Below are positions 5,188 through 64,000 of a stretch of DNA of 64,000 nt, one piece after another. Position 1 is the first letter of the stretch. Every line of letters begins with the position of its first letter. This DNA is from an uncultured Chloroflexia bacterium (GTDB taxonomy: Bacteria; Chloroflexota; Limnocylindria; Limnocylindrales; CSP1-4): NCBI GenBank assembly GCA_963746845.1, contig CAVVCZ010000001.1, positions 128,001 through 192,000 on the forward strand, in the 5' to 3' direction. The notes beneath the pieces were generated by a model. It was not told the origin of the DNA. It was given only the letters and a program-made list of their open reading frames with translations, and ran no database searches. Made by a program: the position numbers and the translations under genes.

Positions 5188-6486
5188 TCAAGCGGCGGCG
5201 GGCGTGGCCTCCGGCAGCGGCGCCTCGGTGATGCCGCGGCCCTTGCGCAGCGGCGAGCGCCAGTAGGCGATCGAACCGAACACGATCACCGACAGGACGC
5301 TGATCGCACGGTCGACGAGGACGATCGCGAGCGCCTCGGTCTGGGGCACCCCGTAGACCAGGGTCAGGACCGCGATCACGCCGGTCTCGACGACGCCGAT
5401 GCCTGCGGGGGTGAGTGGCACGGCCGTCAGGAGCGAGCCCGTGAGGGCGACGAAGAACGCGCCGCTGATTCCCAGGTGGACATCCGGGAAGCCGAGCGCC
5501 TCGACGACGAGGAAGAGGCGCATGGCCTCGGTGGTCCAGATCAACCCGGTGAGGACGACGAGCCGTGGCAGCGCCGACATCCCGACCGCGGAGAAGACCC
5601 CCTCCTCGAACCGGTCATACAGCTCGAGAATGCTGTGCGGCAGGGGTAGCCGCACGATCAGGCGCCGGCCGAAGTTCCGCATCGTGAGCAGGCCGAACGC
5701 CAGGATCACCACGACGGCAACGCCGATCGCGAACACGAGCTGGACCTGGTCGGGAAGGCGGCCGCGGAACGACCAGTAGCCGGCCGCCAGCCCGAGGACG
5801 ACGATCGCGAAGAGGTCGAGGATCCGCTCGATGAAGACGGTCCCGAAGGTCCGCGACAATGACACCGGGCTGTTGATCTTCAGCAGGTAGGCCCGGTAGA
5901 GGTCTCCCAGCTTGGCCGGGACGAGGCAATTCACGAGCCAGCTGATGTAGATGATCTCGGTCGCGTCGCGGACCTTGAGGCGGAACCCGGTGCCGCGGAT
6001 GAGGATCGCCCAGCGCAGCCCGCGGAGCGGGAACCCGAGGTAGAACACGAGGGTCGCGGCCAGCAGCAGCCAGACGTTCGCGCCGGCGATCAGCGCCGGC
6101 AGCTCCTCGAGATGGAAGCCCGGCAACGCCCGCGCGAAGAGGACGAACAGGACGATCGGGAGGATCAGGGACAGGATCGTCCGCGGCTGGCGCAGCCGCC
6201 GGCCGAGCGACAGCTGGTCCGGGGTGATGCTCTCCTCGGCCCGGCGGTCCGCGCCCGTACGGCGATCGGTCCCGGAGCGGCGTTCCGCCTCGGATCGGCG
6301 GTCGGCGTCGGCGACGGCCCCGGTGTCCGCGGCCAGGGCGGCCTCGGCATCGGCGGCCGCGGCCGCCTCGAACGCGGCGACCTCCTCCTGGCGCCGCTCC
6401 TCGCCGGTGCGCCGGTCGTCGCCGCTCCGGCGGTCCTCGCCGTCGGGCCCCGTCGGGCCGTGGGCGGTGCCGAAGAGCCCGCTCAC
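5188..6486 (-). CDS. UPF0104 / LPG-synthase-TM flippase-like membrane protein with Arg/Asp-rich N-terminus
   Basis: R..RW, N...PAK.GD.YR, T.F.ERI.D, P.TP.G.G..E motifs; about 8 TM helices. Confidence 0.85.
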   Translation of the reverse strand: MSGLFGTAHGPTGPDGEDRRSGDDRRTGEERRQEEVAAFEAAAAADAEAALAADTGAVADADRRSEAERRSGTDRRTGADRRAEESITPDQLSLGRRLRQPRTILSLILPIVLFVLFARALPGFHLEELPALIAGANVWLLLAATLVFYLGFPLRGLRWAILIRGTGFRLKVRDATEIIYISWLVNCLVPAKLGDLYRAYLLKINSPVSLSRTFGTVFIERILDLFAIVVLGLAAGYWSFRGRLPDQVQLVFAIGVAVVVILAFGLLTMRNFGRRLIVRLPLPHSILELYDRFEEGVFSAVGMSALPRLVVLTGLIWTTEAMRLFLVVEALGFPDVHLGISGAFFVALTGSLLTAVPLTPAGIGVVETGVIAVLTLVYGVPQTEALAIVLVDRAISVLSVIVFGSIAYWRSPLRKGRGITEAPLPEATPAAA

Positions 6487-7217
6487 GGGCCGATCGGCAG
6501 CGATCGATCCGTCGGCGGGCTCACCCGGCCGTTGCCGCGGACCCGCTGGACCACCTTGGCGACGGGCGTCCAGAGCCGGACGTAGAACGACGCCCGACCG
6601 ACGATCAGCTCGGCGGTCGCCAGGGCGGCAAGGAGCCCGGCCGCCGTCGAGGGGTCGCCGTCGAGGGCCGTATACGCCACCCCGACCTCGAACGCGCTGT
6701 GGGCGTCCGACACGGCGATCCCCGGCCGTCCGTGGCGATGGGCGAGCTCGGCGGCCTGCCGGTTGCCGTCACCGAACGCGACCCGGGCGTTGTGCGCCTC
6801 GACCCAGTCCACCTGCGGCACGAGGCGCTCCATCTGCTCGTCGCGCAGGAGCGAGCCGCGGAACCGATCGAACGGATGGGGGATCCCGACGAGGCCGCCC
6901 TGGGCCCGGACGGCGGTGATCGCCTCCTCGGCCGACAGGCCGGGCGGGATCGCCTCAGTCAGGAACAGCGCGACGAGGTCGCCGTCGGCCGTCTTGATCT
7001 CCTCGCCGACGATCAGCGTCAGGTCCGGCGCGATCTCGGCGGCGACGTCCCGGCCCTCGACCGCGCCGTCGATCCGGTCGTGGTCGGTGATCGCGAGGTG
7101 GGTCACCCCGCGCTTGACCGCCGTCCGGATCAGGGACGCGGGCGAGGCCAGCGAATTGAACGACGCCCGCGAGTGGGTGTGGAGATCCGCGAACGACCTC
7201 GCGGGCGTCGCGGCCAC
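6483..7217 (-). CDS. PHP-domain metal-dependent phosphoesterase
   Basis: DLHTHS, AITDHD, GEEI.T..G, PHPF, SDAH motifs. Confidence 0.88.
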   Translation of the reverse strand: MAATPARSFADLHTHSRASFNSLASPASLIRTAVKRGVTHLAITDHDRIDGAVEGRDVAAEIAPDLTLIVGEEIKTADGDLVALFLTEAIPPGLSAEEAITAVRAQGGLVGIPHPFDRFRGSLLRDEQMERLVPQVDWVEAHNARVAFGDGNRQAAELAHRHGRPGIAVSDAHSAFEVGVAYTALDGDPSTAAGLLAALATAELIVGRASFYVRLWTPVAKVVQRVRGNGRVSPPTDRSLPIGP

Positions 7218-7223
7218 CGGTCC

Positions 7224-8222
7224 CTAGACCTGGGAGACGAGCGACTTCTTGAAGAAGTCGAAGTGCTCGAGCGCGAGGCCGGTTCCGAGGGCGACGCAGT
7301 TCAGGGAGTTCTCGGCGACGTGGCACGGGACGCCCGTCACCTGGGTCAGGAGCTTGTCGATGTTGCGCAGGAGCGAGCCGCCGCCGGACATCACCATCCC
7401 CTTGTCGATGATGTCCGAGCTGAGCTCGGGCGGCGTCTGCTCGAGGACCATCCGGACCGCGGCCACGAGCTGCTGGAGCGGTGCCTCGATCGCCTCCATG
7501 ACCTCGGAGCTCGTGATCGGGATCGTCCGCGGCAGGCCCGCGATCAGGTCCCGGCCGCGGACCTCCATCTGGAGCTCGCGCTCGAGCGGCAGGGCGGTCC
7601 CGATCTGGATCTTGACCTCCTCGGCCGTCCGCTCGCCGATCATCAGGTTGTACTTCTTGCGGATGTACGTCGCGATGTGCTCGTCGAACTTGTTGCCGCC
7701 AACCCGGAGCGAGGTCGAGACGACGATCCCGCCGAGGGCGATGACCGCGATCTCCGATGTCCCGCCGCCGATGTCGATGACCATGTTCCCGGACGGCCCG
7801 CTGATCGGGACGTTCGCGCCGATCGCGGCGGCGAGCGGCTCCTCGATGAGGTACGCCTCCTTCGCGCCGGCCTTGAGGGCCGCGTCGCGGACGGCCCGCT
7901 TCTCGACCGACGTGACGCCGGCCGGGACCGAGATCATCACCTCCGGCCGGGAGAAGCCGATCCTGCCCTTCGTCGCCTTGGCGATGAAGAAGCGGAGCAT
8001 CGCCTCGGTGATCACGTAGTCGGCGATGACGCCGTCCTTCATCGGGCGGATGGCGGTGATGTTGCCGGGCGTGCGCCCGATCATCTCGCGGGCCTCCTCG
8101 CCCACGGCCACGATGCGGTTGTCGTCGGAGACCGCGACCACGGACGGTTCCGTGATCACGACCCCCTTGCCCTTGACGTAGACGAGGACGTTGGCCGTGC
8201 CGAGGTCGATGCCGATCTTCAT
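7224..8222 (-). CDS. mreB: Rod shape-determining actin homologue MreB/Mbl
   Basis: [43 protein letters not shown]; lies downstream of murA like Bacillus mbl. Confidence 0.96.
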
Positions 8223-9565
8223 GAGGGTGTGGAAACAGTCCCTTCCTCGATGCGCGCGATCCGGGCTCCCAGATCGGCGAACTTGCGTTCGATGTTCTCA
8301 TAGCCGCGCTGGACGTGGTGAGCGCCGTGAATTGTCGACTCGCCGTCCGCGGCGAGCGCGGCGAGGATCAGCGACGCGCCGGCCCGCAGGTCGCCGATCT
8401 CGGCGTCGGCCCCGGTGAGGGGCGTCCGCCCGTGGATCGTCGCGTGGTGACTGTCGCCGATCTCGATCCGGGCGCCCATCCGGTTCAGGTCCGCGAGCCA
8501 CTCCAGGCGGTCCTCGAAGATCGCCTCGTGGACGCGCGACGTCCCGTTCGCCTGGGTCAGCAGGACGCAGGCCGGCGGCTGGAGGTCGGTGGCGAGGCCC
8601 GGATAGGGCGCGGTCTCGATGTCGCACGCCCGGTAACCGCCTTCGGCCAGGCCGCCACCGTCGACCGTGATCCGGTCCCCGTCGCAGCGAGCCTCGACCC
8701 CGGCCCGGGCGAGGACGTCGAGGAACGCCGACAGGTGCTCGCAGGGCGCACCGGTGAGGGTCACCCGTCCGCCCGTCACGGCGCCCGCGACGGCGAACGT
8801 CCCCGCCTCGATCCGGTCGGGGATGACGTGGTGGTCCGCGCCACGCAGGCGCCGCTTGCCGTGGACCTCGATCGTGTCCGGCGTCGTCCGTTCGACTTCG
8901 GCGCCCATCTTGCGCAGGAACGCGATGAGGTCGTCGACCTCCGGCTCCTGGGCGGCCGGCCGGATCACGGTCTGGCCGTCCGCGAGGGTGGCCGCCAGCA
9001 TCGCGTTCTCCGTGCCCATCACGGACACGAACGGGAACTCGATCTCGGTCCCGCGGAGGCGGCCGGGCGCGGTCGCGAAGTAGTAGCCGTTGCGGTAGTC
9101 GATCGTCGCGCCGAGCCGGCGCATCGCCTCGACGTGGAGGTCGACCGGCCGCCGGCCGATCCGGTCGCCGCCCGGGTTGCTGATGATCACCCGGCCGAAG
9201 CGGGTGAGAAGCGGTCCGAGGAGCATGAAGCTCGCCCGCATCTTCGCCGCCGCCTCGAGCGGCACGAACAGCCACTCGACGTCGCCCGAGGCGACCTCGT
9301 AGACGTTCGGCTCCGGGTGGTCGACGACGACGCCGAGATCGCGCAGGGTCTCGGCCATGACCCGCACGTCCTCGATCTCGGGGACGTTCGTGAACCGGCA
9401 CCGCTCGCCGGTCAGCGTGGCCGCGGCGAGCATCTTCAGCGCCGCGTTCTTCGATCCGCTGATCGGGACCTCGCCGCGCAGCGGCGTGCCGCCGGCGATC
9501 CGGAAGACCTCGCGGGTCACCGGCTCAGGGGTGTACTCCCAATGGAACGGCCTCGCGTCAGCCAA
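8219..9565 (-). CDS. murA: UDP-N-acetylglucosamine 1-carboxyvinyltransferase (Asp variant at the fosfomycin-target Cys)
   Basis: [12 protein letters not shown]...[37 protein letters not shown]. Confidence 0.95.
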
Positions 9566-9610
9566 GGGACACCACCATGGACTTCGTCGCGATTCGTCGT
9601 GCCACGGGCA

Positions 9611-10039
9611 CTAGACGCGTCGCCGGGCCCCTTCGTGCTGGCGTCGCTCCGCGACCCGGATCCGCAGGAGCGCGGTCTGGAGCGACGCCCGGGCAGCGGC
9701 CAGGTCGGCGCCCTCGACGAACCCGCTCTCGAGCGCCTGCTCGGCCTGGCGGCGGGCCTCCTGGGCCTTCTCGAGATCGATCTCGGACGCGATGTCGGCG
9801 GTCTCGGCCATGACGACGACCTTGTCCGGGAGCACCTGGAGGAAGCCGCCGACGATCGCGAACGACTCCTCCTGCCCGCCCTTGCGCAGACGCAGCTCGC
9901 CCGCCCCGAGCGTGGACACGAGCGGCGCGTGATGCGGCAGCACGCCGAGCTCGCCCTCGGACCCGGGCAGGACGACGGCGTCGACCTGGTCCGAGTAGGC
10001 CAGCTTCTCGGGCGTGACGATGTCGAGCTGGAGGGGCAT
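9611..10039 (-). CDS. atpC: ATP synthase F1 epsilon subunit
   Basis: MPLQLDIVTPEK, GELGVLPHHAP, GGFLQV; last gene of atp operon. Confidence 0.95.
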   Translation of the reverse strand: MPLQLDIVTPEKLAYSDQVDAVVLPGSEGELGVLPHHAPLVSTLGAGELRLRKGGQEESFAIVGGFLQVLPDKVVVMAETADIASEIDLEKAQEARRQAEQALESGFVEGADLAAARASLQTALLRIRVAERRQHEGARRRV

Positions 10040-59893: not shown

Positions 59894-59909
59894 TGCTTCA
59901 CGTGAAACT
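59894..59909. promoter_or_regulatory. Second parS-like site overlapping a start codon
   Basis: TGCTTCACGTGAAACT, 14/16 match to the parS consensus. Confidence 0.6.
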
Positions 59910-60990
59910 GTCCGGCGCGACCGTCGCCACCCCGCTGCGCCTCGGACCGACGATCCGGGCGGTCGACCTCCACGCCGGCGGCGAGCCCGGCCGGGTCATC
60001 GTCGATGGCGTCGCCGACGTGCCCGGCGCGACGATGTTCGACAAGATGACCTGGCTTGCCGCGAACCGCGACGACCTCCGGCTGCGGATGCTCCGGGAGC
60101 CGCGCGGCTTCCCTGCGGCGAACTGCAACCTCGTCCTGCCGTCGTCGAACCCGGAGGCGGCCGCCGGGTACGTCATCATGGAGCAGGTCGAATACCCGGG
60201 GATGAGCGGGACGAACACGATGTGCGTCGCCACCGCCCTCCTGGAGCTCGGGCTGGTGCCGATGACCGAGCCGGTCACGGAGCTGACGCTCGAGGCGCCG
60301 GCGGGGCTGATCCGGATCCACGCCGGGTGCCGGGATGGCAAGGTCACCGGGGTGACGTTCCGGAACGTGCCGGCCTTCGCGACCCACCTCGACGCGGTCG
60401 TGGAGGTCCCTCATCTCGGGACGGTCACGGTCGACGTCGCCTACGGCGGCATGTTCTACGTCATCGCTTCCGCCGAGGCGTTCGGGCTCCGGCTCACGCC
60501 CGACGAGGGAGCGGACATCGCCCGGATCACCGAGATGATCAAGGCAGCCGCCGCCGATCAGCTGCCGGTGGTCCACCCGGAGCAGCCGGCGTTCGCGGGG
60601 ATCACGATCGGCCAGCTGTCCGGGCCGGCCCACGATCCGGCGAACGCGATGCGGAACGTCGTGACGGTCTCGAGCGGGATGCTCGACTGGGACCGCCCGG
60701 GGACGTGGACGGGCGCGATCGATCGGTCGCCGTGCGGGACGGGAACGTCCGCCAGGATGGCGACTCTCCACGCGCGCGGTCGGCTGGCGATCGGCGAGGA
60801 CTTCCGCCACGAGGGGATCCTTGGGACGGTGTTCACGGGCCGGCTCCTCGAGGAGACGATGGTCGGGGGACGGGGCGCGGTCGTCCCGCAGATCACCGGC
60901 CAGGCGTGGATCACGGGGATCGCCGACTACGTTCTCGACCCGACCGACCCGTTCCCGGACGGCTTCACGATCGGCGACATCTGGGCCTGA
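59902..60990 (+). CDS. Proline racemase superfamily protein (Ser/Cys active-site pair)
   Basis: D.H..GEP.R, EPRG, MSGTN in place of MCGH, D.AYGG, DRSPCGTGTSA, DPF..GF. Confidence 0.9.
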   Translation: MKLSGATVATPLRLGPTIRAVDLHAGGEPGRVIVDGVADVPGATMFDKMTWLAANRDDLRLRMLREPRGFPAANCNLVLPSSNPEAAAGYVIMEQVEYPGMSGTNTMCVATALLELGLVPMTEPVTELTLEAPAGLIRIHAGCRDGKVTGVTFRNVPAFATHLDAVVEVPHLGTVTVDVAYGGMFYVIASAEAFGLRLTPDEGADIARITEMIKAAAADQLPVVHPEQPAFAGITIGQLSGPAHDPANAMRNVVTVSSGMLDWDRPGTWTGAIDRSPCGTGTSARMATLHARGRLAIGEDFRHEGILGTVFTGRLLEETMVGGRGAVVPQITGQAWITGIADYVLDPTDPFPDGFTIGDIWA

Positions 60991-60997
60991 CCGCGCC

Positions 60998-62686
60998 TCA
61001 GCGCAGGAAGTAGCGCCGGCTCAGCGGGACCTCGTCGACCGGCTCGATCGCCATCGGGCGTCCATCGAGCGTGACCGCCCCGTCGGTCGGGTCGACCTCG
61101 ACCGGCGCGGCGGCGCGGTTCAGCCACAGGTCGTCCCGGGTCAGCCCGCGGGTCGCGCCGATCGGCAGCACATCGCGCCCGGCCACGGACCGGGCGCGGA
61201 GACCCGAGACCGCCGAGGGTGCCCCGAACGTGACACCGAGCCGGGCGGCGGCGGCAGCTGACCCGCCCCACTCCGGGCGGTAGCGCGTGGGCTCGGCGCG
61301 CTCGACCGTCGCGTTGCCCTCGCCGAGCGGCGCCCACGCCGGATACCCGCTCTTGAGCACGAGCTCCGGCTTGGCACCGAACCATGCGGGCTTCCAGAGG
61401 ACGATGTCGGCGAGCCGGCCCGGCCGCAGCGACCCGACGTGGTCGGCGAGCCCATGCGTGATCGCCGGCTCGATCGTGACCTTCGCGAGATAGCGCAGGA
61501 CCCGCTCGGTGTCGTCCGGGATGCCGTCGCCGCCGACGACCCGTGTCAACGTGCTACCACGCCACCGTGTCATCACGCTGGCAAGCTGAAGCGTGCGGCG
61601 GATGGTCTCGAGGATCCGGCCCATCCCCTGCGAGTCGGAGTTCACGATCTGGATCGCCCCGAGATCGTGGAGCGGCCCCTCCGCCGCCATCGATGCCGGG
61701 TGGATCCGCTCGGCGGCGAGCCGGACATCCGCCGCCACGCCCATCGACCCGCCATGGTTCAGCACGATCATCGCGACGTGCTCGGCCGCCGCGTGCCGCC
61801 CGAACGGGAGCGTCGGCGTCGTCGACGAGCAGATGATGTTCGGCTCGCGGACGAGCCCGATCAGGTCCGGGATGTGCCCGCCGCCCGAGCCCTCCACGTG
61901 GTAGGCGTGGACCGTGCGGCCCGCGATCGCCGCGACCGTGTCCTCGAGCTCCGCGGATTCGTGCAGCCCGTCGGTGTGGAGCGACACGGCGACACCCGCC
62001 GCGGCCGCGAACGACAGCGTCGCGTCGATGATCTCCGGCGTCGCACCGTAGTCCTCGTGGATCTTGAACCCGACGGCGCCCGCCTCGACCAGGGCCGCGA
62101 GATCCGCGGGATGGGTCGACCGCGCGCATGCCTGCAGCCCGACGTTCAGCGGCCAGCCGGCGATCGAGGCGAGCATCCGCTCCATCGCCCACGGCGGCTC
62201 CTCGAACCCCGCGGTGACGAGGGTGGTGACCCCGCCCGACAGGGCCGCCGGCATCAGCTCCGGGCTGATCAGGTGGACGTGGCTGTCGATCGCGCCGGGG
62301 GTGGCGATCAGCCCGTAGGCCATGATCGGGGCGGTGTGCGGCCCGATCTCGAGCTCGATCCCGTCGCTGATCGCCGGGTTCCCGGCCCGCCCGACCCCGA
62401 CGACCCGCCCGTCCTTGATCCCGATGTCCGCCTTGACGATCCCGATCGTCGGATCGATGACCAGCGCGCCGGCGACCACGGCGTCGAGCTCCGACGGCGA
62501 TGCCCGGCCGGTCTGGGTCATCCGGGGTCGGAGCGTCTTGGCATAGCCCCAGATCGGCTCGTCGCCCGGCGCCTGGCGGTCCTCGCCGACCGTGACCCAC
62601 AGGTCGGTGTCACCGAGGCGGACCCGATCACCGGCGGTCGGGCCGTACCGGGCGAGGCGATCTTCCGGCGAGAGCACGCGGCTCAT
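60998..62686 (-). CDS. ureC: Urease alpha-subunit-like amidohydrolase (divergent)
   Basis: YGPT.GD.VRLGDT, G.AGNP, DSHVH, GFKIHED.G, LHTD, YHVEG.GGGH.PD, SDSQ.MGR, RY.AK.TI.PA. Confidence 0.88.
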   Translation of the reverse strand: MSRVLSPEDRLARYGPTAGDRVRLGDTDLWVTVGEDRQAPGDEPIWGYAKTLRPRMTQTGRASPSELDAVVAGALVIDPTIGIVKADIGIKDGRVVGVGRAGNPAISDGIELEIGPHTAPIMAYGLIATPGAIDSHVHLISPELMPAALSGGVTTLVTAGFEEPPWAMERMLASIAGWPLNVGLQACARSTHPADLAALVEAGAVGFKIHEDYGATPEIIDATLSFAAAAGVAVSLHTDGLHESAELEDTVAAIAGRTVHAYHVEGSGGGHIPDLIGLVREPNIICSSTTPTLPFGRHAAAEHVAMIVLNHGGSMGVAADVRLAAERIHPASMAAEGPLHDLGAIQIVNSDSQGMGRILETIRRTLQLASVMTRWRGSTLTRVVGGDGIPDDTERVLRYLAKVTIEPAITHGLADHVGSLRPGRLADIVLWKPAWFGAKPELVLKSGYPAWAPLGEGNATVERAEPTRYRPEWGGSAAAAARLGVTFGAPSAVSGLRARSVAGRDVLPIGATRGLTRDDLWLNRAAAPVEVDPTDGAVTLDGRPMAIEPVDEVPLSRRYFLR

Positions 62687-63291
62687 TCCCCGTCTCCAGG
62701 CGCGCGGTCGCCGGCGAACCGCACGATCTCGACCGTCTTCTCCTCGCCCGGCGCCCACCGCTCGGCGTCGCCGGCCGGCAGGTCGAGCCGGAACCCGGCC
62801 GCGGCCACGCGGTCGAAGACCAGCCGCTGGTTCACCCGGTCGAACGGCATGTGCGACGACACCCGGACGACCCGGCGCGACGTGTTGCGCACGGCGAGAG
62901 ACCGGCGCTCGGCCGCGGCGGCGGCAGGCGCCAACGGACCCGGGCCGGCGACGATCGCGCCCGGTCCATCAACCGGCATCGGTCGACCGGCGCCGAGCGG
63001 ATCCACGAGGACCACGAGCCGCGTCCCGTCGCCGACGAGCACCTCCAGGCGGACCTCGTCGACGAGCTCGCGGACGCCGTCGAGCACCTCGTCCGGCCCG
63101 ACCGCCCCGAGTCCGGCGGCCTCGACCGCGTCGAGCCCGGCTCCATCCCGCGCCGCCTCGAGCATCGCGTCGCAGATGATCGCGATCGTCTCGGGCGCGT
63201 TCAGCGGCAGGCCGCGAGCGCGTCGTCGACGGGCGAGCTCGGCGGCCGAGAACAGGAGCAGCCGCTCCTCCTCCCAGGCGGTCAGGCGCAT
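62683..63291 (-). CDS. ureA: Fused urease gamma/beta subunit-like protein
   Basis: M.LT..E.E.L....AAE.AR.R..RGL.LN.PE, E....DGT.LV (gamma); V.N...R.V.V.SH..F..VN..L.FDR..A.G.RLD.PAG (beta). Confidence 0.88.
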   Translation of the reverse strand: MRLTAWEEERLLLFSAAELARRRRARGLPLNAPETIAIICDAMLEAARDGAGLDAVEAAGLGAVGPDEVLDGVRELVDEVRLEVLVGDGTRLVVLVDPLGAGRPMPVDGPGAIVAGPGPLAPAAAAAERRSLAVRNTSRRVVRVSSHMPFDRVNQRLVFDRVAAAGFRLDLPAGDAERWAPGEEKTVEIVRFAGDRAPGDGE

Positions 63292-63344: not shown

Positions 63345-64000
63345 TCAGTTCGTCGCGACGCGGACCTGGTGACCCGCCGGCGACGCGCTTGCCGGGGCCG
63401 CCGGCGCCGGTGCGACGGCCGGTCGACGTCCGGCCTGGACGAACATCGCAACCCCGATCGCCGAGGTCGCCGCGCAGGCGAGCAGCCCGACGGTGACGTC
63501 GATCAGGCCGATCTCGAGCAGCGCGCTCATCAGGAAGGCGGCCACGATCCCACGGGCGCCGGTGAGCGCGTTCCAGCCGGCCATCGCCGCCGCGCGGGAG
63601 GCGAGCGGCGTCTGATCGCTCACCGCCGCGGCGATCCCGACATCGATCGACGCGCTGCCGATGCCCCCGGCGATCGCCGCGAACCAGAGCACGACGACGC
63701 TCGGGGCGAACGCGTAGGCGACGAGGGACAGCAGGCCGATCGCGCTCCCGAGACGCAGCGACGCAAGCGCGCCGAACCGGTCGGCGACGAGGCCCCAGAG
63801 CGGGAACGCGACGGTGGTCGCGATGGCGGCGAGGATGCCGATCACGCCCACGTCCGACAGGCTCAGGTTCAGCCGGTCGACATGGACGAGCGCGAACAAT
63901 GGCGCGGCAGCGATCAGACCGCCGCCGTAGAACCCCTGGGCGAGGGCGATCCGGGCGAGGAGCGGGCGCTCGCGCAGTGCGCGGATCGACTCCCGGGCGG
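63345..64000 (-). CDS. MFS transporter, C-terminal part (truncated by window edge)
   Basis: WG..ADRFG motif, multiple TM helices; frame open to the window end. Confidence 0.8.
   Translation of the reverse strand, partial: ARESIRALRERPLLARIALAQGFYGGGLIAAAPLFALVHVDRLNLSLSDVGVIGILAAIATTVAFPLWGLVADRFGALASLRLGSAIGLLSLVAYAFAPSVVVLWFAAIAGGIGSASIDVGIAAAVSDQTPLASRAAAMAGWNALTGARGIVAAFLMSALLEIGLIDVTVGLLACAATSAIGVAMFVQAGRRPAVAPAPAAPASASPAGHQVRVATN

Follow-up and report, generated by a model that had tools for sequence, protein, structure and literature searches.

A urease-like gene pair of Limnocylindria belongs to a branch of urease alpha subunits without accessory genes and with an altered pocket

INTRODUCTION

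What is the role of a urease-like enzyme in which every metal ligand is in place, the substrate pocket is altered, and the maturation genes are missing? The question is raised by two adjacent genes, ureAB (a fused gamma-beta subunit) and ureC (an alpha subunit), in a stretch of 64,000 nucleotides (nt) of contig CAVVCZ010000001.1 (assembly GCA_963746845.1), from an uncultured Chloroflexia bacterium of the CSP1-4 lineage; this whole stretch is called the window below. Urease is the classic example of a nickel enzyme, and the way in which UreD, UreE, UreF, and UreG mature it serves as a model for metal trafficking. An initial annotation, made from the window sequence alone, had described the pair as a urease paralogue with a different, probably larger substrate or a different metal. 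Judged by sequence, the window gene is a member of a deep, uncharacterised, and helper-less branch of urease alpha subunits. The pair is quite likely to encode a functional ureido-hydrolase that is independent of helpers. The substrate is a closer matter, and it is weighed below against the genes found around the relatives of the pair and in the host genome.

RESULTS

The metal ligands are conserved and the pocket is altered

The motifs of ureC were read from a residue-by-residue alignment with Helicobacter pylori UreB (1e9y_B) and from the translated coordinates (Table 1). The six metal ligands, the flap histidine, the active-site arginine, and the equivalents of His219 and Asp221 are all retained. 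The ligand histidines additional to those of the HVH motif are His237 and His263. Each of the ligands named in the initial annotation (HxH, the lysine, two further histidines, and the aspartate) is found at its expected place.

In canonical ureases, a pocket loop supplies the backbone carbonyl of an alanine that binds urea. In the window ureC, TAGFEEPPW stands in place of GGGTGPADGTNATTITPG, with 9 + 2 gap columns against UreB and 11 columns in a MAFFT alignment, in agreement with the shortening by about 11 residues that had been noticed from the sequence. The two other substitutions noticed at that stage, VLNHGG for MVCHHL in the mobile flap and DSQGMGR for DSQAMGR, are also present in both the alignment and the coordinates.

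Accessory genes are absent from the genome and from related loci

The host genome (3.56 Mb, 12 contigs, 92.4% complete) was searched with profiles over all contigs. There is exactly one Urease_alpha match. No match to UreD or UreG is found, nor to UreE_C (the N-terminal domain of UreE was not searched), and UreF gives only a sub-threshold stretch of 20.6 bits with two stop codons. The lack of ureD, ureE, ureF, and ureG, first remarked on for the flanks, thus holds genome-wide, and accessory genes encoded elsewhere, which would have spoken for an ordinary urease, are not seen beyond that sub-threshold UreF stretch. In the same searches, Bacillus subtilis, taken as a control, is positive for Urease_alpha and negative for UreD, UreF, UreG, and UreE_C. 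The search for nickel transporters proposed at the outset was made in part: no nickel-uptake gene of the NicO/NiCoT type is found in the host genome (other nickel importers were not searched).

The same state prevails in relatives. Among 151 genomes sampled from the class, a ureC match occurs in 17 besides the host, 16 of them in the same family (68%–86% identity); UreG and UreD pass their cut-offs in none of these 16. The seventeenth, G126, has the sole canonical-type ureC of the sample (48% identical), and there UreG and UreD adjoin ureC, which makes it a positive control. Among 14 genomes of Actinomycetota and Dormibacterota that carry the short-loop form, UreG is over the cut-off in none (four have weak matches of 23–45 bits), and all have a single full Urease_alpha gene, with an additional partial match of 22.8 bits in G162.

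At the level of loci, 205 were examined by tblastn with proteins taken from the loci. By motif rules, 56 are canonical, 137 are noncanonical (80 of Limnocylindria, 12 other short-loop, and 45 with a loop of middle length, or mid-loop), and 12 are unclassified (including L054 and L055). UreG lies in the locus in 52/56 canonical and 0/137 noncanonical cases, and UreD in 45/56 and 0/137, respectively; the unclassified loci have UreG in two and UreD in one. In the 31 loci recovered with P0127, UreG and UreD occur in 0/12 with the mid-length loop, and with the canonical motifs UreG occurs in 18/19 and UreD in 17/19. The motif state predicts the helper linkage. Genome-wide, UreG passes the cut-off in one (G165) of 12 mid-loop genomes, and two more reach 192 bits for a cut-off of 204, so that not every genome with a member of the wider clade is helper-less.

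Residues that contact UreD or line the nickel tunnel are replaced

Cryo-electron microscopy and mutagenesis of the UreFD/urease complex, in the portions of the report that bear on these residues, show that HpUreB Arg338 and Arg340 flip toward UreD, and that activation is abolished by D336A (an acid of the tunnel) or Y543A in HpUreB and by E177A in HpUreA (PMC10121161). In the window ureC, the equivalent of Asp336 is Ala325, Arg338 is kept, and Arg340 is replaced by His; the equivalents of Tyr543 and of HpUreA Glu177 are given in Table 1.

The same positions were tallied in 20 canonical and 41 noncanonical sequences with intact ligands. Position 336 is acidic in 20/20 canonical versus 5/41 noncanonical sequences. 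For Arg340, the numbers are 20/20 and 20/41, with His in all 21 short-loop sequences; for Tyr543, they are 17/20 and 1/41. Such a loss of docking residues would fit a different way of getting the metal.

The alpha subunit falls in a clade apart from canonical ureases

The window ureC exceeds the cut-off of the NCBIfam "subfamily" model NF009686 (616 bits for a cut-off of 354) and stays below every NCBIfam equivalog cut-off for the urease alpha subunit (538 for 680 with TIGR01792, 541 for 907 with NF009685, and 505 for 1001 with NF009834). The check with a structure model, suggested in the initial annotation, was carried as far as the fold, which is that of urease. The AlphaFold model of ureC has a mean predicted local distance difference test score of 83, and a fold search with it gives template-modelling scores of 0.89–0.92 to all solved ureases, with 39%–42% identity over the structural alignment. 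The Protein Data Bank matches of both the window ureC and P0127 are all canonical ureases, and none is a solved structure of the noncanonical clade.

A tree of 45 full-length representatives at 50% identity (quick IQ-TREE run, LG+G4, midpoint root, with the Shimodaira–Hasegawa-like approximate likelihood ratio test, SH-aLRT, as sole support) contains three groups: canonical sequences with a loop of 21 residues, MVCHHL, and DSQAMGR; homologues devoid of ligands; and a noncanonical clade of 32 rows (SH-aLRT 99) with a loop of 16–17 or 10–11 residues. In the latter, the flap is mostly without Cys and has no His-His pair, and DSQG is the most frequent form. Within it, the short-loop sequences of Limnocylindria, Actinomycetota, and Dormibacterota form a subclade of 21 rows (SH-aLRT 100). 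The window ureC belongs to the clade and to this subclade, so that the phylogeny that had been called for separates it from bona fide UreC. In Actinomycetota, the short-loop form is found in records labelled Euzebyaceae, Egibacteraceae, and Streptosporangiaceae, and in Dormibacterota in one genome. More than 100 database clusters at 80%–90% identity, named "urease subunit alpha," come from Chloroflexota or Candidatus Limnocylindrales.

The homologues devoid of ligands (P0143, P0175, P0179, P0185, P0197, P0211, P0216, P0253, and P0262) are full-length, with most or all ligands replaced. They are probably a family of pseudo-ureases, to which no role is assigned.

The alpha-subunit gene is under purifying selection

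From the 80 related Limnocylindria loci, 69 full-length orthologues recovered as a single high-scoring segment pair were aligned with the window protein, giving a set of 70 (67%–89% identity). The ligands H, H, K, H, and H are invariant (70/70) and the Asp is found in 68/70. The flap residues N, H, and G, as well as Gly354 and Arg327, are each present in 70/70, and the AGFEEP loop is retained in all the variants listed. The motif changes are not a matter of chance, given that neither the ligands nor the new motifs of loop and flap vary among the 70 orthologues. The ratio of nonsynonymous to synonymous substitution rates (dN/dS, Nei-Gojobori) between the window gene and its 15 nearest orthologues is 0.10–0.24; over the 2415 pairs with 0.05 < dS < 1.5, the median is 0.23 and the maximum 0.43. 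The ureC gene is intact and under purifying selection. Decay, which had been named as the result that would overturn the functional reading, is contradicted by these ratios and by the intact frames.

A second-site copy of ureAB-ureC occurs in one genome (G062; L041, contig C1, about 5243–9725), after a gene of 707 amino acids (aa) of the COG1574-type Amidohydro_3 family; its ureC is in two frames, through either a frameshift or an assembly error. Single-chain ureABC fusions, suggested by a crude choice of open reading frames, were rejected, the ureAB and ureC matches being in different frames.

Gene layout and the upstream transporter

The features of the locus are collected in Table 1. Open reading frames and Pfam matches agree with the layout given in the initial annotation, a gamma-beta fusion plus an alpha subunit flanked by a transporter gene of the major facilitator superfamily (MFS) and a convergent gene. 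The start of ureC is taken as the ATG that overlaps the ureAB stop (TGA) in ATGA, the open frame extending to a GTG at 62758. The fused subunit aligns to residues 1–193 of H. pylori UreA.

Table 1. Positions of the genes, motifs, and RNA element discussed (window numbering unless a locus is named; HpUreA and HpUreB, H. pylori UreA and UreB)
Feature	Position	Strand	Description or basis
Pro_racemase-family gene	59902..60990	+	Pfam, 397 bits; convergent with ureC
ureC-like alpha subunit	60998..62686	-	562 aa; Pfam Urease_alpha and Amidohydro_1
Gly536, equivalent of HpUreB Tyr543 (UreD interface)	61079..61081	-	Alignment
DSQGMGR (canonical DSQAMGR): Asp351 ligand, Ala to Gly at pocket position	61616..61636	-	Alignment
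"Switch II" region ADVRLAAERIHP	61697..61732	-	Alignment with HpUreB, read against portions of PMC10121161
Mobile flap VLNHGG (canonical MVCHHL): Cys to Asn, catalytic His kept, second His to Gly	61748..61765	-	Alignment
KIHED: Lys208 (carbamylated in ureases), substrate-polarising His210, Asp212	62051..62065	-	Alignment and 70 orthologues
Shortened pocket loop TAGFEEPPW, 11 residues less than canonical GGGTGPxxGTxATTxTPG	62189..62215	-	Alignment
HxH metal ligands His136 and His138 (HVH)	62273..62281	-	Alignment and 70 orthologues
ureAB, fused gamma-beta subunit	62683..63291	-	202 aa; Pfam Urease_gamma 1-98, Urease_beta 112-196
UreAB Ala180, equivalent of HpUreA Glu177	62752..62754	-	Alignment
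MFS transporter gene, 3' part	63345..64000	-	Pfam MFS_1; 419 aa in full, continues past the window end
Cyclic di-AMP (ydaO/yuaA) riboswitch	L003 6619-6747, about 620-750 nt beyond the right end of the window	-	Rfam RF00379, 68 bits (gathering 38); 14 nt upstream of the MFS start

The MFS gene lies upstream of ureAB on the same strand, with a gap of 53 nt. No terminator-like site was found between the two, and scans of the window locus for transfer-messenger RNA (tmRNA) and for terminators or promoters were empty. The MFS gene is likely the first gene of an operon with ureAB and ureC, and the three would be transcribed together.

In Limnocylindria, the chromosomal position of ureAB-ureC is constant, with (Pro_racemase)-smpB-ctpA-ftsX-ftsE in convergent orientation, and ureAB is present in 79/80 loci. 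An MFS orthologue was sought in the 57 loci whose upstream sequence extends for 1.9 kb or more: it is directly upstream on the same strand in 29, separated from ureAB by a small membrane-protein gene in 5, elsewhere in the locus in 7, and absent from 16. The cyclic di-AMP (c-di-AMP) riboswitch in front of the window MFS gene has counterparts at 59–69 bits in 10/10 other loci tested, and a riboswitch-like match lies upstream of 39/42 MFS orthologues. This riboswitch class precedes osmolyte and ion transporters. The riboswitch accompanies the MFS gene and not ureABC; in G098, riboswitch and MFS gene occur alone at the same place.

Deiminase genes at related loci

The neighbourhoods of homologues sharing the loop deletion, to which attention had been drawn at the outset, show MFS genes in Limnocylindria and recurrent agmatine-deiminase-like genes in Actinomycetota. 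Genes of the PAD_porph family occur in 6/14 short-loop loci outside Limnocylindria (L044 and L047–L051), in two of them (L047 and L048) between ureAB and ureC. They directly follow ureC in 5/45 mid-loop loci and are found in 0/56 canonical loci. Taken together, agmatine-deiminase-like genes are in or beside the operon in 11/57 classified helper-less loci outside Limnocylindria (11/59 with L054 and L055), versus 0/56 canonical loci. Four PAD_porph genes were tested and score best as agmatine deiminase (317–326 bits, below the cut-off of 382). Other neighbours are arginase-family genes (L045 and L054), an arginine deiminase gene (L050), DUF1989 (L054), and amidases (L052 and L055).

N-Carbamoyl amines are the products of agmatine deiminase homologues, and their cleavage is the work of either AguB or putrescine carbamoyltransferase; for N-carbamoylputrescine, these enzymes represent the two known routes (PMC13625781). 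In nine genomes with a deiminase-urease linkage, neither AguB nor putrescine carbamoyltransferase passes its cut-off.

Separately, the mid-loop loci of freshwater and soil Actinomycetota (L146–L155 and L182–L220) have a COG1574-type Amidohydro_3 gene in 26/45 cases, and polyamine-type ABC binding proteins occur in 13/45 mid-loop loci.

DISCUSSION

A proposed ureido-amidohydrolase on substituted urea, urea, or both

The reading we prefer, to which we give about an even chance, is that ureAB and ureC form a ureido-amidohydrolase that assembles by itself and whose substrate is an N-substituted urea, urea, or both. The conserved residues suggest that a carbamylated lysine bridges the metals of a two-metal centre and that the flap histidine is the general acid; the C–N bond of the ureido group would be hydrolysed in the manner of urease. 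The centre would be assembled without UreD, UreE, UreF, or UreG, with Fe, Mn, Zn, or adventitious Ni as candidate metals. The part of the pocket that holds the distal NH2 group of urea would be the one rebuilt (loop shorter by 11 residues, Ala to Gly, Cys-His-His to Asn-His-Gly), and from this rebuilding we infer that an N-monosubstituted urea, of the N-carbamoylputrescine kind, may be the preferred substrate, with urea as a second or alternative one. A wider pocket is suggested by the alignment together with the roles of Ala167/170 and Ala363/366. Since an MFS importer gene behind a c-di-AMP riboswitch stands upstream in the putative operon, the substrate may enter from outside the cell.

N-substituted ureas are favoured by the changes in the pocket and by the deiminases that recur as partners. 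Urea is favoured by the agmatinase of the host, by the arginase neighbours, and by the lack of any other urease. A main substrate other than plain urea is a shade short of evenly balanced. The larger, substituted-urea substrate proposed in the initial annotation is sustained in part, by the changed pocket and the deiminase-like genes at loci of relatives; the host itself does not follow, having no PAD_porph gene and an agmatinase.

Several points weigh against a substituted urea as substrate. Every residue known to act on urea is present in ureC, so plain urease activity is possible. In the host genome no PAD_porph gene is found, an agmatinase-family gene, a urea producer, is present (TIGR01230, 188 bits for a cut-off of 174), and no urea carboxylase is found, this being the sole other urea-degrading enzyme searched for. 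The arginase-family genes that adjoin the short-loop genes in L045 and L054 are also urea-forming. No second, canonical urease accompanies the short-loop form: a full canonical gene is never present in the 14 + 17 genomes. The argument from a missing AguB is soft, as sub-threshold CN-hydrolase matches (250–265 bits for a cut-off of 410) exist in five of the nine genomes with deiminase linkage, and in the window genome, with a partial match of 210 bits in a sixth. Lastly, the link to the MFS gene is loose: that gene is found in 4/16 ureC-positive genomes of a 36-genome sample, and G098 keeps riboswitch and MFS gene without ureABC.

The same points are the strength of the first alternative, that the pair is the host's own urease, with urea coming from agmatinase or from uptake and the metal acquired without helpers. 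We regard this as a real possibility, though one that falls below an even chance. Urease activity would fit the host, because agmatinase would make urea and no urea carboxylase was found to consume it, and the pair is the sole urease homologue of the genome. The lack of a second urease in the 14 + 17 genomes (leaving aside the 22.8-bit partial match in G162) is expected if the short-loop enzyme is the urease of the cell. The ligands, the catalytic histidine, the arginine, His210, and Asp212 are kept, arginase-family genes stand beside short-loop genes in two loci, and the B. subtilis control is a case of Urease_alpha without matches to UreD, UreF, UreG, or UreE_C. On the other hand, the loop that provides the urea-binding carbonyl is deleted and the flap is altered, and both changes are fixed across three phyla. 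Moreover, the partner MFS protein is not of a known urea-transporter type, and elsewhere the partners are deiminases that yield substituted ureas.

A more specific form of the preferred ureido-amidohydrolase can be proposed, tentatively and with the chances somewhat against it. The helper-less branch as a whole would then be a metal-dependent N-carbamoyl-amine amidohydrolase and not a urease, with a self-assembled non-nickel centre. Acting after a deiminase, this ureidohydrolase would close a route by which guanidino-amines (agmatine and its relatives) are turned into free amines, and would take the place of AguB or putrescine carbamoyltransferase. In Limnocylindria, it would have been rewired to work on a substrate whose import is controlled by c-di-AMP.

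It is improbable that the urease fold serves another chemistry here, with, for instance, a carbamate ester, amide, or guanidine as substrate, or else a compatible solute whose import is controlled by c-di-AMP. The remodelled pocket, the MFS gene behind a c-di-AMP riboswitch, and the Amidohydro_3 (26/45) and polyamine-type binding-protein (13/45) genes beside mid-loop relatives would suit it, but they single out no specific candidate, and the catalytic residues are precisely those of a ureido hydrolase. That the pair is an ordinary nickel urease and its ureDEFG genes were overlooked is very unlikely: the assembly, 92.4% complete in 12 contigs, leaves some room for it, but UreG and UreD are missing from 16 related genomes and UreG from 14 unrelated short-loop genomes, several of them in very few contigs, the UreD-docking and tunnel residues are replaced, and canonical loci keep helpers next to ureC in 52/56 cases. 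A decaying or noncatalytic remnant, of the kind that the full-length homologues devoid of ligands and the frameshifted copy in G062 might suggest, is hardly credible with intact frames, invariant ligands, and dN/dS of 0.10–0.24.

Citrulline was considered as a substrate, the host having an arginine deiminase, and is unlikely. A complete arcA-arcB-arcC cluster with an NhaC/ArcD-like carrier (G000:C2:27513-30660; L061 and L144) lies away from the urease-like genes, and no ornithine transcarbamylase or carbamate-kinase gene stands beside any of the 205 loci.

Comparison with known systems

With the canonical nickel ureases of Klebsiella aerogenes (2KAU), Sporosarcina pasteurii (4UBP), and H. pylori (1E9Y), the window enzyme shares the fold, the gamma, beta, and alpha parts, the metal ligands, the carbamylatable lysine, the flap histidine, and the arginine. 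It differs from them in the loop (11 residues less), the flap (Cys to Asn and His to Gly), DSQG for DSQA, the replaced docking residues, scores below the equivalog cut-offs, and accessory proteins, with UreD, UreE_C, and UreG not found and UreF at sub-threshold level only.

UreA2B2 of Helicobacter mustelae (3QGA) is reportedly an iron urease that needs no accessory proteins. It resembles the window pair in having a fused small subunit plus a large subunit and no dedicated helpers. Kinship with it does not hold up, however, and the likeness is one of analogy: 3qga_C scores like any canonical urease (444 bits versus 458 for H. pylori UreB) and is of canonical length (query 9–560 aligned to 7–566).

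The urease of B. subtilis acquires its metal without helpers, inefficiently. It is comparable in that its genome, too, lacks accessory genes that can be recognised, as the control searches indicate; it has canonical pocket motifs and three separate subunits.

Clusters of fused ureAB plus ureC without accessory genes were noted in 2008 in Streptomyces coelicolor (SCO5525-5526) and S. avermitilis, in a passage of PMC2492869. Streptomyces ure(AB)C clusters were listed in 2012 among urea-utilisation genes, in a section of PMC3293853 that describes no functional work on them. The window pair matches such clusters in gene arrangement, and those genomes also have a complete canonical urease operon. 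No Streptomyces sequence was among the contigs recovered in the genome scans.

AguB/NCPAH, of the CN-hydrolase fold, performs the reaction proposed for the clade and is the usual partner of agmatine deiminase, according to the relevant portion of PMC13625781. Its fold and mechanism are unrelated to those of the clade, and the likeness, if it exists, would be functional. A literature search, mostly outside subscription journals, gave no biochemical or structural study of the noncanonical clade, and nothing relevant on atypical or helper-less ureases or on a citrullinase with urease.

Together, the data describe a branch of the urease family that is large and widely spread, being found in Chloroflexota, Actinomycetota, and Dormibacterota with hundreds of sequences from soil and freshwater, and in which the helpers are gone, the docking residues are lost, and the urea pocket is rebuilt. 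The gene pair probably splits urea-like compounds in a way not previously assayed. Two things would follow from such a branch: surveys of metagenomes in which "ureC" stands for the potential to hydrolyse urea may over-count, and the scaffold of urease may be able to accommodate a different metal, a different substrate, or both.

Other features of the locus

The Pro_racemase-family gene adjoins ureC in 35/80 related loci (a hand count of locus rows). Its best NCBIfam match is trans-3-hydroxy-L-proline dehydratase (363 bits, below the cut-off of 550). It is probably not part of the urease-like system, to which no link is evident. Farther along, between 55873 and 59874 of the window, open reading frames of 260, 294, 497, and 194 aa match in length and order the ftsE, ftsX, ctpA, and smpB genes of relatives, an order kept in nearly all related loci; these names follow from position and length.

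In nine of 10 loci scanned (L064, L079, L089, L092, L098, L115, L118, L143, and L180; for example, 4381–4753 in L079), the riboswitch and MFS gene are immediately preceded by a tmRNA gene; in the window contig, ARAGORN found none within 12 kb. Because tmRNA is upstream and smpB downstream of ureC, the MFS, ureABC, and Pro_racemase cassettes are placed in a variable stretch between ssrA and smpB. The G+C content of the urease-like region is about 72%–74%, the same as in the remainder of the window.

In nine loci (L113 5557–6432, L092 5577–6383, L098 3115–4029, and six more), a conserved gene of about 230–300 aa is inserted between the MFS gene and ureAB. Its product has N- and C-terminal membrane helices with a long helical stretch between them, and no Pfam or NCBIfam match. 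It was considered as a new metallochaperone and rejected as such, being a coiled-coil membrane protein with two transmembrane segments and no His/Cys motif.

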